Positions 54,981 through 56,012 of a DNA stretch of 64,000 nt are shown here, one piece after another (the first letter of the stretch is position 1; each line of letters begins with the position of its first letter). The stretch is from Thermoanaerobaculia bacterium (lineage in GTDB: Bacteria; Acidobacteriota; Thermoanaerobaculia; Multivoradales; JAHEKO01). The DNA lies in contig CALZKB010000045.1 of the NCBI GenBank assembly GCA_945787575.1, positions 1,896 to 65,895 on the forward strand, in the 5' to 3' direction. The notes under the pieces are model-generated. The model was not told the DNA's origin and did no database searches. It saw only the letters and a program-made list of their open reading frames with translations. Both the position numbers and the translations under genes were made by a program.

Positions 54981-56012
54981 ATGACCGCACAGAAAGAAGT
55001 GCTGAACGTGGGAGTGGATCTTGGGACGTCGCGCAGCGCGGTGTCGGCCTCGAACGGAGCGCGCCACCTGGTGCTGAGCTACGTCGGCTGGCCGCTCGAC
55101 ATGGTCGCCCGACGTGTCGTCAAGCGCGACGTCTTGATCGGCGACGAGGCCCTTGATCAGAGGCTGATGCTCGACCTCTATCGGCCGCTCGAGCGAGGCC
55201 TCATCAAGGAGGGCTCCGAGCGGGAAGCACAGGCGGTGCGAGAGCTCCTCAAGCACGTTCTATCGCTGGCCGGAGTCGACGAAGCTCGGGAATCGGGCGC
55301 GGAGGTGCGCGCCGTCGTGGGCGTGCCTGCCGAGGCGATGCGAGTCAACAAGCAGCAGCTTCGCGGTGCGATGGAGGGCTTGGTGGATTCGCTCATGATC
55401 GTCTCGGAGCCGTTCGCCGTGGCCTACGGCCTCGAGGCGCTGCTCCACGCGCTCATCGTCGACATCGGCGCGGGCACCACCGACCTGTGCGTGATGAACG
55501 GTCGCTACCCGCGAGACGAGGATCAAAAGACGCTGACGGTTGCCGGGGACTCGATCGACGAGCAGCTGATCCAGCTCGTGCGAGACCGCTATCCGGAAGC
55601 GAACTTCTCGGGTCATATGGCGACGAGCTGGAAAGAGTCGGGCGGTTTCGTGGGTGAGCTCAGCGGCAAGGTGATGGTCACCGCTCCGGTCAAGGGGAAG
55701 CCGACCAAGTTCGACATCACCGAGGAAATGCGCACCGCTTGCGGTGGCCTCATTCCACCGGTGGTCGAGGCGATGCTCGACCTCATCTCGCGGGTGGAGC
55801 CGGAGTACCAGCCGAGAGTCCGCGGCAACGTCATCCTGACCGGCGGGTCCTCGCAGCTGAAGGGCCTCGGAGCGGCCCTCCAGGACTCCTTGCAGGAGGT
55901 TGGCGGCGGCAAAGTTCGGGTCGTCAAGGAACCGGCGTTCGTCGGCGCGGACGGGGGGCTGGCGATCGCCACCGATGCGCCGGATTCCGACTGGGAAACA
56001 CTCGCCGGCTGA
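54981..56012 (+). CDS. MamK-family actin-like ATPase
   Basis: Blockwise similarity to MamK along the full length: [19 protein letters not shown]...[100 protein letters not shown]. Confidence 0.7.

Follow-up and report, generated by a model that had tools for sequence, protein, structure and literature searches.

A MamK-superfamily actin encoded in a conserved pair with a bitopic peptidoglycan amidase

The window analyzed here is a 64,000-nucleotide stretch of a Thermoanaerobaculia bacterium (assembly GCA_945787575.1, contig CALZKB010000045.1, positions 1,896 to 65,895 of the forward strand). It carries a gene for an actin-like protein of 343 amino acids (aa), which runs on the plus strand from the ATG at position 54981 to the stop at 56012, exactly as given in a preliminary description of this DNA, and has an identical counterpart among the genes called on NCBI contig CALZGG010001085.1 (assembly GCA_945786865.1). 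The protein belongs to the MamK superfamily of actins but not to the magnetosome MamK family. Directly upstream, here and under about ten phylum-level taxonomic labels, lies a gene for a bitopic N-acetylmuramoyl-L-alanine amidase (53952..54971, plus strand, 339 aa). We are highly confident that the two proteins form a functional module and that the actin's subfamily within the MamK superfamily is not a magnetosome one. Less firmly, we propose that the actin filament binds the cytoplasmic tail of the amidase and thereby positions or clusters amidase activity in the periplasm.

The amidase-actin pair and its distribution

The 80 best loci carrying relatives of the window actin were compared, drawn from a collection that holds one genome per GTDB species. 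Taxonomic labels follow the record titles given by the submitters of the metagenome-assembled genomes (MAGs). Roughly 50 of the 80 loci come from Thermoanaerobaculia, Holophagales, and other Acidobacteriota MAGs, with actins 59 to 72% identical to that of the window. The other 30 or so (46 to 53% identity) carry the labels Desulfobulbaceae and other "Deltaproteobacteria" (Desulfobacterota), Gammaproteobacteria/Chromatiales, Nitrospiraceae/Ca. Sulfobium (Nitrospirota), Rhodothermales, Gemmatimonadota, Schekmanbacteria, Rokubacteria, and Binatia. A MAG labeled Alphaproteobacteria adds to the labels under which the pair occurs.

Searching these loci by tblastn with the neighbors of the window actin located an Amidase_3 gene directly upstream of the actin gene, on the same strand, in 77 of 80 cases, and two of the three remaining loci end at a contig edge. 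The preliminary description had placed the actin gene between an amidase gene and ligA, encoding NAD-dependent DNA ligase. The amidase-actin half of this arrangement is retained across the labels listed above, whereas ligA follows the actin gene at only five loci (L002, L003, L006, L008, and L043), all close relatives, and was therefore rejected as a functional partner. De novo all-versus-all clustering of every open reading frame (ORF) within 7 kb yielded just two families that are conserved: the actin, present at 79 loci, and the amidase, at 77. All other recurrent clusters are antisense shadow ORFs or occur in at most 13 loci, and no third conserved gene of the module emerged from this clustering of the 80 loci.

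The distance from the amidase stop codon to the actin start codon has a median of 1 nucleotide (nt) and a maximum of 55 nt, and the two genes overlap in 33 of 76 pairs, which points to a translationally coupled operon. In the window, the spacers measure 9 nt between amidase and actin and 5 nt between actin and ligA (ATG at 56018), shorter than the 10 to 15 nt reported at first. The co-transcription suggested on the basis of those spacers is very probable for the amidase and actin genes.

Seven further amidase-actin pairs were found at metagenome loci (L091, L094, L095, L100, L107, L108, and L111). A reverse search, starting from the amidase, returned three informative long contigs with divergent homologs, two of which have a full-length actin gene directly downstream; the third is discussed with the alternatives below. 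In one lineage, a gene for a 514-aa PilZ-domain protein lies directly 3' of the amidase-actin pair (L165:8061-9605 and L166:2124-3668). This PilZ-bearing lineage is widespread, being found in 65 blocks of the collection.

The actin subfamily and its relation to MamK

In every comparison made, MamK is the best match of the window actin and BeeR the next best, with MreB far behind in third place. Its scores against the NCBIfam hidden Markov models are 377.6 bits for MamK (E = 4.6e-113), 212.1 bits for BeeR, and 66.1 bits for MreB. A PDB search returned the MamK structures 5LJW, 5LJV, and 5JYG with an E value of 6e-76 over query residues 5 to 341, followed by BeeR (8R2N, E = 8e-44) and T. maritima MreB (E = 6e-11). 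By BLASTP, the protein is 39.5% identical to AMB-1 MamK over 339 aa and 32.8% identical to BeeR, with MamK and BeeR sharing 28% identity. The AlphaFold2 model, built from a 43-sequence alignment, has a predicted local distance difference test score (pLDDT) of 92.1 and a predicted template modeling score (pTM) of 0.88. Its best Foldseek match is the MamK filament subunit 5LJV, with template modeling (TM) scores of 0.90/0.94 and a root mean square deviation of 1.9 Å, and the model is nearest to MamK in its filament conformation. BeeR and MreB follow with TM scores of 0.86 and approximately 0.79, respectively, and PDB entry 2WUS is also among the fold matches. The likeness to MamK noted in the preliminary description thus extends over the whole length of the protein and is closer than that to MreB, FtsA, or ParM.

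Residues D13, G15-S17, E143, D161-D168, Q182, and G288-G289 are invariant in 79 of 79 subfamily members. They make up the phosphate-1, phosphate-2, and adenosine motifs and include the catalytic glutamate (E143); judged by its residues, the ATP-binding and catalytic site is intact. MamK (5LJV/5LJW/5JYG, NF040964) has the same nucleotide-binding and catalytic residues and a similar length (approximately 343 to 347 aa). Like MamK, the window actin lacks an N-terminal extension, as the first beta-strand of its model begins at residue 7, and no membrane-targeting sequence of its own was seen. By analogy with MamK, the protein presumably depends on a membrane-bound adaptor for its recruitment to the membrane. 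The two differ in their conserved partners, which are magnetosome proteins for MamK and a peptidoglycan amidase for the window actin.

Three observations set the window actin apart from the magnetosome MamK family: its score of 377.6 bits falls below the curated NF040964 cutoff of 400 bits, it lies in a separate group in the tree, and no mam-type domain was detected in the window. Using an E value of 8e-120 or lower as a proxy for the 400-bit cutoff, all 37 MamK reference sequences pass (best score, 549 bits), compared to 26 of 79 amidase-linked actins, and the window actin fails this proxy as well. These references were all taken from the top matches of a search with AMB-1 MamK and stem from Magnetospirillum, Magnetospira, Magnetococcales, Terasakiella, Nitrospinota, and gammaproteobacterial MAGs. 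In a BeeR-rooted neighbor-joining tree (174 sequences, 338 columns, 100 bootstraps), the window actin is one of 53 tips in a clade of amidase-linked Acidobacteriota actins (bootstrap 52). Another clade, with 25 tips from many phyla, has a bootstrap of 95, and the 22 MamK references included sit in a separate 26-tip group. The MamK superclade, which unites the window clade with the MamK references, is separated from BeeR-like sequences with a bootstrap of 98. Backbone bootstraps are below 30, leaving the branching order among the groups of the superclade without support. Eight alignment columns distinguish amidase-linked actins from MamK (S19/T, W37/Y, A43/G, V86/A, A146/M, D190/N, P236/R, and D332/E). 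Position A278 of MamK, known from the nonpolymerizing A278D mutant, was considered as a diagnostic residue and rejected. Its column varies in both clades, with proline in the window actin and glutamate as the commonest residue even among the MamK references.

When most of the ORFs called in the 64-kb window were scanned with Pfam, no domain of the MamI, MamF/MmsF, magnetochrome, CDF, or MamE-like protease type turned up, in line with the earlier remark that other mam genes are missing from the window, and no mam-type domain recurs across the 80 related loci. The domains that were found belong to everyday housekeeping and envelope proteins: IspG, a thymidylate synthase region, an MsbA-like ABC transporter, alpha-2-macroglobulin, AcrB/TolC/TetR, vWA proteins, an ECF sigma factor, nitrilase, GlpD, sulfatase, SDR, 3-hydroxyacyl-CoA dehydrogenase, and PolA. 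As a control, the same kind of domain annotation at locus L167 placed MamK reference P0343 amid MamI, MamF/MmsF, MFS, and a MamE-like trypsin-PDZ-magnetochrome protein; P0343 is the one MamK reference whose magnetosome context was verified in this manner. The initial label "MamK family" is consequently correct at the level of the superfamily, which the tree supports as a superclade, and does not extend to the magnetosome family, since the actin fails the cutoff and branches outside the MamK reference group.

Two other sequences fall near this boundary. P0334 (L168:2243-4968, GCA_016219175.1), initially counted as a MamK reference, passes the proxy cutoff, with neither a magnetosome cluster nor an amidase gene adjoining. 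A second actin-like gene lies in tandem with it, and a 162-aa ORF separates the two. P0380, a partial protein from an Acidobacteriota MAG on a 3-kb contig, bears the NCBI name MamK and is 54% identical to AMB-1 MamK, to which it is nearer than the window actin is.

One-third of these non-magnetosome, amidase-linked actins (26/79) pass the MamK threshold proxy. A MamK annotation or the mamK marker alone is therefore not evidence of magnetotaxis, a point of practical concern as mamK is used as a marker gene (bioRxiv 10.1101/682252). Neither an MreB nor a MamK annotation is reliable for the amidase-linked actins. The pair is also relevant to the question of how the magnetosome cytoskeleton arose in evolution. 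In the BeeR-rooted tree, the amidase-linked clades form a basal grade within which the MamK references are nested, at the backbone bootstraps below 30 given above. As a tentative and rather doubtful extension, the amidase-linked actins might represent the ancestral, housekeeping form of the MamK superfamily, with cytomotive filaments that move or concentrate a membrane-anchored, autoinhibited amidase. Wall cleavage would thus be placed by an actin, independently of AMIN domains, and magnetosome MamK would then have been recruited later out of this envelope system.

Several other MamK-related actins lack a magnetosome context. BeeR of Verrucomicrobiota is found in non-magnetotactic bacteria, assembles into three-stranded tubes, and has an unknown function; its hallmark is a disordered N-terminal extension of 30 to 50 aa (PMC11929497; PDB 8R2N). 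This extension is absent from the window actin, which scores 212.1 bits against the BeeR model NF053558 compared to its cutoff of 530, and no amidase gene adjoins the actin at BeeR loci L082 to L090. A shared ORF of approximately 150 to 165 aa precedes the BeeR gene on the same strand, about 90 to 156 nt upstream, at L082 (1011-1478 region), L083, L084, and L085. The product of this ORF (~155 aa) may be a BeeR partner and is not mentioned in PMC11929497. Saltatorellin, a MamK-like actin of Saltatorellota, forms filaments on heterologous expression (bioRxiv 10.1101/817700), and mamK-like ORFs occur in Beggiatoaceae/Thiomargarita, where the Thiomargarita mamK homolog adjoins a flotillin-like gene (bioRxiv 10.1101/2022.04.11.487978). 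The cited papers report no amidase partner for BeeR, saltatorellin, or the Beggiatoaceae/Thiomargarita actins.

A further MamK-like clade, approximately 36% identical to the window actin, has conserved neighbors of its own (L096, L097, L098, L101, L102, and L106), namely, a large upstream ORF of 361 to 1,082 aa and a downstream ORF of about 420 aa that appears coiled-coil-like. That different branches of the superfamily have different conserved partners fits a filament with exchangeable membrane adaptors or cargo. Eight MamK-superfamily proteins of 523 to 1,232 aa (P0133, P0134, P0136, P0137, P0140, P0147, P0149, and P0157) form one clade in the neighbor-joining tree. They combine a C-terminal actin domain with N-terminal extensions of roughly 190 to 900 aa, in which no Pfam domain was found.

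Architecture of the partner amidase

The window amidase matches Pfam Amidase_3 with an E value of 4.7e-45 and the PDB entries 8C2O, 3NE8, and 4BIN. In every lineage, the amidase has the same layout, consisting of an N-terminal tail motif, a basic linker, one hydrophobic helix, a variable linker, and the Amidase_3 domain. In the window protein, the tail is an N-terminal helix spanning codons 5 to 23 (53964..54020, plus strand), with the core VLREAFEEN at aa 11 to 19 (nt 53982-54008). The motif can be written approximately as [+]-hydrophobic-[K/R]-x-x-[ILMV]-[LIV]-R-x-[AV]-[VY]-x-[ED]-N-[LV] and reads SLRRRVLREAFEENY in the window, where the invariant asparagine is N19. This is the sole invariant residue within the first 117 aa of the amidase. 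The motif-core pattern occurs in 70 of 71 intact partner N termini, compared to a mean of 1.0 and a maximum of 4 in 200 shuffles. Of a further 119 amidase homologs taken from the protein database, the strict motif is seen in 108 and a near-variant that keeps the asparagine in 6; the remainder appear to be gene calls cut short at the N terminus. Within the motif, K/R at -3 and N at +8 are invariant. The conserved positions (-4, -3, 0, +1, +4, +5, +8, +9, and +12) follow a helical periodicity, which defines one conserved helix face.

The tail is followed by a basic juxtamembrane stretch and a single transmembrane helix (codons 29 to 63; 54036..54140, plus strand), whose most hydrophobic 17-mer, aa 45 to 61, reads VTVAAVAAIFGATYVLA and has a Kyte-Doolittle value of 2.09. 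The stretch between motif and transmembrane helix contains seven K/R and no D/E in the window amidase. Across loci, this linker is 17 to 39 residues long, with 4 to 10 K/R versus 0 to 5 D/E. By the positive-inside rule, such a basic stretch places the tail in the cytoplasm and the catalytic domain in the periplasm. An uncleaved-looking transmembrane helix thus follows a basic cytoplasmic segment of approximately 44 aa, from which we conclude that there is no signal peptide, although no dedicated signal-peptide predictor was run. Next comes a Pro/Ala-rich periplasmic linker (codons 66 to 106; 54147..54269, plus strand), which is 42 to 123 aa long across loci and not conserved in sequence. AlphaFold2, run with a 37-sequence alignment, agrees with this layout: a helix at aa 2 to 23 (pLDDT 83 to 87), a continuous helix at aa 29 to 63 (pLDDT 84 to 91), disorder at aa 66 to 106 (pLDDT <50), and a confident catalytic domain at aa 112 to 332.

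The Amidase_3 catalytic domain (codons 112 to 332; 54285..54947, plus strand) includes a regulatory insertion of the AmiA/B/C type at aa ~207 to 249 (nt 54570-54698). It gives one uninterrupted alignment over aa 112 to 328 with AmiA (8C2O), Bartonella AmiB (3NE8), and E. coli AmiC (4BIN), whereas alignments with the insertion-free amidases 5EMI, 4RN7, and 1JWQ are split and skip aa 207 to 249. E. coli AmiA (8C2O) is the top match of the amidase by both sequence and Foldseek (target-normalized TM score, 0.81). The zinc ligands and catalytic glutamate (H121, E136, H189, and E294) are invariant in 70 partner amidases, as is the E221-N222 pair inside the insertion. From these residues, the partner amidase looks active. 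The retained insertion with its invariant E-N pair suggests that it is probably autoinhibited and in need of activation.

Pfam detected no AMIN domain in the amidase, and its NCBIfam scores stay well below the respective cutoffs for AmiA (101/400), AmiB (81/532), and AmiC (78.7/700). The enzyme, originally called an AmiC-type amidase, is therefore an Amidase_3 protein but not AmiC proper, and its catalytic domain is nearest to AmiA. It shares the catalytic domain and regulatory insertion with the division amidases that act with LytM activators, E. coli AmiA/B/C (8C2O, 4BIN, and 8C0J) and Bartonella AmiB (3NE8), but has a tail and a transmembrane anchor in place of their Tat/Sec signal or AMIN septal-targeting domain.

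Possible role of the pair and its setting

The tail helix is conserved like an active site, even though the catalytic domain lies across the membrane. Based on this conservation pattern and on the bactofilin precedent described below, we propose, with a probability of about 0.55, that the actin filament binds the amidase tail and positions or clusters periplasmic amidase activity. Amidase and actin would be produced from one translationally coupled operon, and the actin would polymerize on the cytoplasmic side in an ATP-dependent manner. The amidase tail would dock on the filament, which would tether, cluster, or move the enzyme, so that cleavage of periplasmic peptidoglycan would be confined to a defined place, e.g., the division site or a growth zone. 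In such a scheme, the tail and transmembrane anchor would stand in for the AMIN domain or soluble export of the classical division amidases. The earlier guess that the protein might organize an envelope structure fits what the conserved amidase partner implies.

The closest precedent is the bactofilin BacA with LmdC, a bitopic M23 peptidase. Their genes lie side by side in many species, including Hyphomonas neptunium and Rhodospirillum rubrum; the N-terminal cytoplasmic tail of LmdC binds BacA directly, with a dissociation constant of ~15 µM, and a conserved motif in this tail is required for recruitment of the hydrolase by the polymer (PMC10945521). Both systems combine adjacent, co-conserved genes for a polymer and a hydrolase (77/80 loci in the present case), the hydrolase being bitopic with a conserved cytoplasmic tail motif. 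They differ in that the polymer is an actin-fold ATPase rather than a nucleotide-independent bactofilin, that the enzyme is of the Amidase_3 rather than the M23 endopeptidase type, and that the tail motif is a predicted helix rather than the beta-hairpin of LmdC. By analogy, the pair may work like the bactofilin-LmdC modules without being a member of that group.

A more distant comparison is MreB, an actin filament that, together with RodZ and the Rod complex, organizes wall enzymes across the membrane by way of the cytoplasmic portions of bitopic proteins. The enzymes that MreB guides are synthases, MreB itself attaches directly to the membrane, and its gene accompanies mreCD. The window protein resembles it as an actin-family filament protein and differs from it in the weak sequence match and in being paired with a hydrolase.

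Several points weigh against the positioning proposal. As an amphipathic element, the conserved tail helix could lie on the membrane or bind another protein, and polymerization of the actin is predicted from homology only. Other MamK-like clades at similar identity lack an amidase, which suggests that the association is specific to this subfamily. In addition, the pair is not absolutely obligatory. Locus L072 has no amidase gene within the 372 nt available upstream, and the third contig of the reverse search (L164:7024-7533) keeps an intact amidase and has lost most of the actin, of which 169 aa remain after an internal deletion of approximately 1 kb relative to the syntenic L162:7034-8065. 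This truncation could reflect natural decay of the module or else an assembly artifact; in P0495, a relative from the same subgroup, the contig stops 175 nt into the actin gene. Finally, all 80 loci come from MAGs, with no cultured isolate among them, which limits what can be said about the cell biology of the hosts and may also explain why the module has gone unstudied.

Two alternatives accept the module and assign it a different role. The amidase could serve as the anchor rather than the cargo, its tail and transmembrane helix only attaching the filament to membrane and wall, with the filament positioning something else, such as a region of the chromosome, a storage granule, or a different envelope complex. 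MamK positions organelles through adaptor proteins, and an actin with no obvious membrane-targeting sequence that is paired with a membrane protein would suit this arrangement, as would the different conserved partners of other MamK-superfamily clades, which suggest interchangeable adaptors or cargo. Yet no third gene is conserved within 7 kb, the catalytic and regulatory residues are invariant in 70/70 partners, which a mere anchor would not need, and the periplasmic linker is modeled as long and flexible, making this option unlikely. We assign a similarly low probability to the view that the two proteins are co-transcribed without touching each other, the tail lying in the plane of the membrane as a helix or serving the amidase in regulation or export, and the actin acting in a related pathway. 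The amphipathic nature of the tail helix and the one genome that keeps an amidase beside a truncated actin (L164) speak for it. Against it, the pairing is kept across about ten phylum-level labels while other neighbors change, start and stop codons overlap in 33/76 pairs, and in each context examined, the gene downstream of a tail-bearing amidase encoded an actin or what remains of one. The invariant asparagine and conserved acidic residue on the helix face would also be unusual for a simple membrane-surface helix, and the absence of contact leaves unexplained why the one conserved element that this periplasmic enzyme has in the cytoplasm is found alongside a cytoplasmic filament protein.

The remaining alternatives concern the identity of the genes and are far less probable. 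Automatic annotation names close relatives "rod shape-determining protein MreB", and MreB_Mbl is the top Pfam match of the window actin (72.5 bits). A plain MreB that determines rod shape is nonetheless very hard to reconcile with scores of 66.1 bits for NF010539 (cutoff, 293) and 52.3 bits for TIGR00904 (cutoff, 365.75) versus 377.6 bits for MamK, with the gap in PDB E values (6e-11 versus 6e-76) and fold TM scores (0.79 versus 0.90), and with the absence of mreC, mreD, rodA, and pbp2 from the window and from the recurrent genes of related loci. It is equally improbable, if not slightly more so, that the gene is a stray or degenerate paralog of magnetosome MamK with a full mam cluster elsewhere in the genome. 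MamK is the best-matching characterized family, and Magnetospirillum is reported to have a second MamK-like gene outside the island (PMC2818848). However, mam-type domains are missing from the window and do not recur in the 80 related loci, and the actin belongs to a large clade that has its own conserved partner, groups separately, and includes the window protein at a score below the cutoff passed by 37/37 references. The host labels are, to our knowledge, mostly not among the taxa that include magnetotactic bacteria. An origin as a phage or mobile lysis or defense cassette, e.g., a signal-anchor-release (SAR) endolysin with a phage actin, is just as remote. Amidase_3 is a common endolysin domain, the amidase matches endolysin PHROGs at 96 bits, its transmembrane helix is Ala/Gly/Thr-rich and SAR-like, and the pair alone is conserved between varying flanks. 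These PHROG matches, however, span the generic catalytic domain only, those of the actin are weak (~30 bits), and PADLOC returned nothing meaningful. The flanks consist of housekeeping genes (ligA, polA, and metabolic genes), among which there are neither integrase genes nor genes for phage structural proteins, the amidase has the division-type regulatory insertion, and the clades largely track host taxonomy.

Targeted literature searches, with incomplete coverage of subscription papers, returned no prior description of any MamK-like or actin-like protein that has an amidase as its partner. The actin-amidase combination and the tail motif thus appear not to have been described before. The actin itself is a new subfamily of a known superfamily, and the operon logic is already known from bactofilins. 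If the proposal that the filament positions the amidase is correct, the pair would represent a second, independent way for a cytoplasmic polymer to direct a periplasmic hydrolase to its cut site, using an actin-family ATPase where the known module has a bactofilin, and an amidase where that has an M23 peptidase. A large and widespread group of MamK-like actins from outside magnetotactic bacteria, which are now annotated as MreB and include those of many never-cultured soil and sediment Acidobacteriota, would likewise gain its first concrete function open to testing. The tail offers a defined candidate interaction motif of approximately 19 residues with an invariant asparagine.

At the sequence level, the locus shows no compositional break, as the G+C content is approximately 67% across the window. 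A 110-nt intergenic region (53842..53951, plus strand) lies between a divergent gene and the amidase gene and presumably holds the operon promoter, although a consensus scan found no sigma-70-like promoter in it; at 67% G+C, promoter and terminator scans were uninformative at this locus. The actin gene (54981..56012, plus strand), assigned to the amidase-linked subfamily of MamK-superfamily actin-like ATPases from profile, PDB, BLASTP, and fold-model evidence, has a possible Shine-Dalgarno sequence, GGGAG (54963..54967, plus strand), inside the end of the amidase gene, 13 nt 5' of its ATG. Packed tightly 3' of it is ligA (56018..58030, plus strand), identified by its Pfam ligase domains and located outside the conserved module.

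The divergent gene upstream of the amidase (52891-53841, minus strand) encodes a 316-aa protein with no Pfam match, homologs of which occupy the same relative position in L002, L008, and L043 only, the closest relatives. Elsewhere in the window, a 1,066-aa ORF (4277-7477, plus strand) has no Pfam match at 1e-5. Its C-terminal part resembles, by eye, that of a 387-aa vWA/Big_7 protein (35072-36235, plus strand), and the two may be paralogous secreted vWA proteins.

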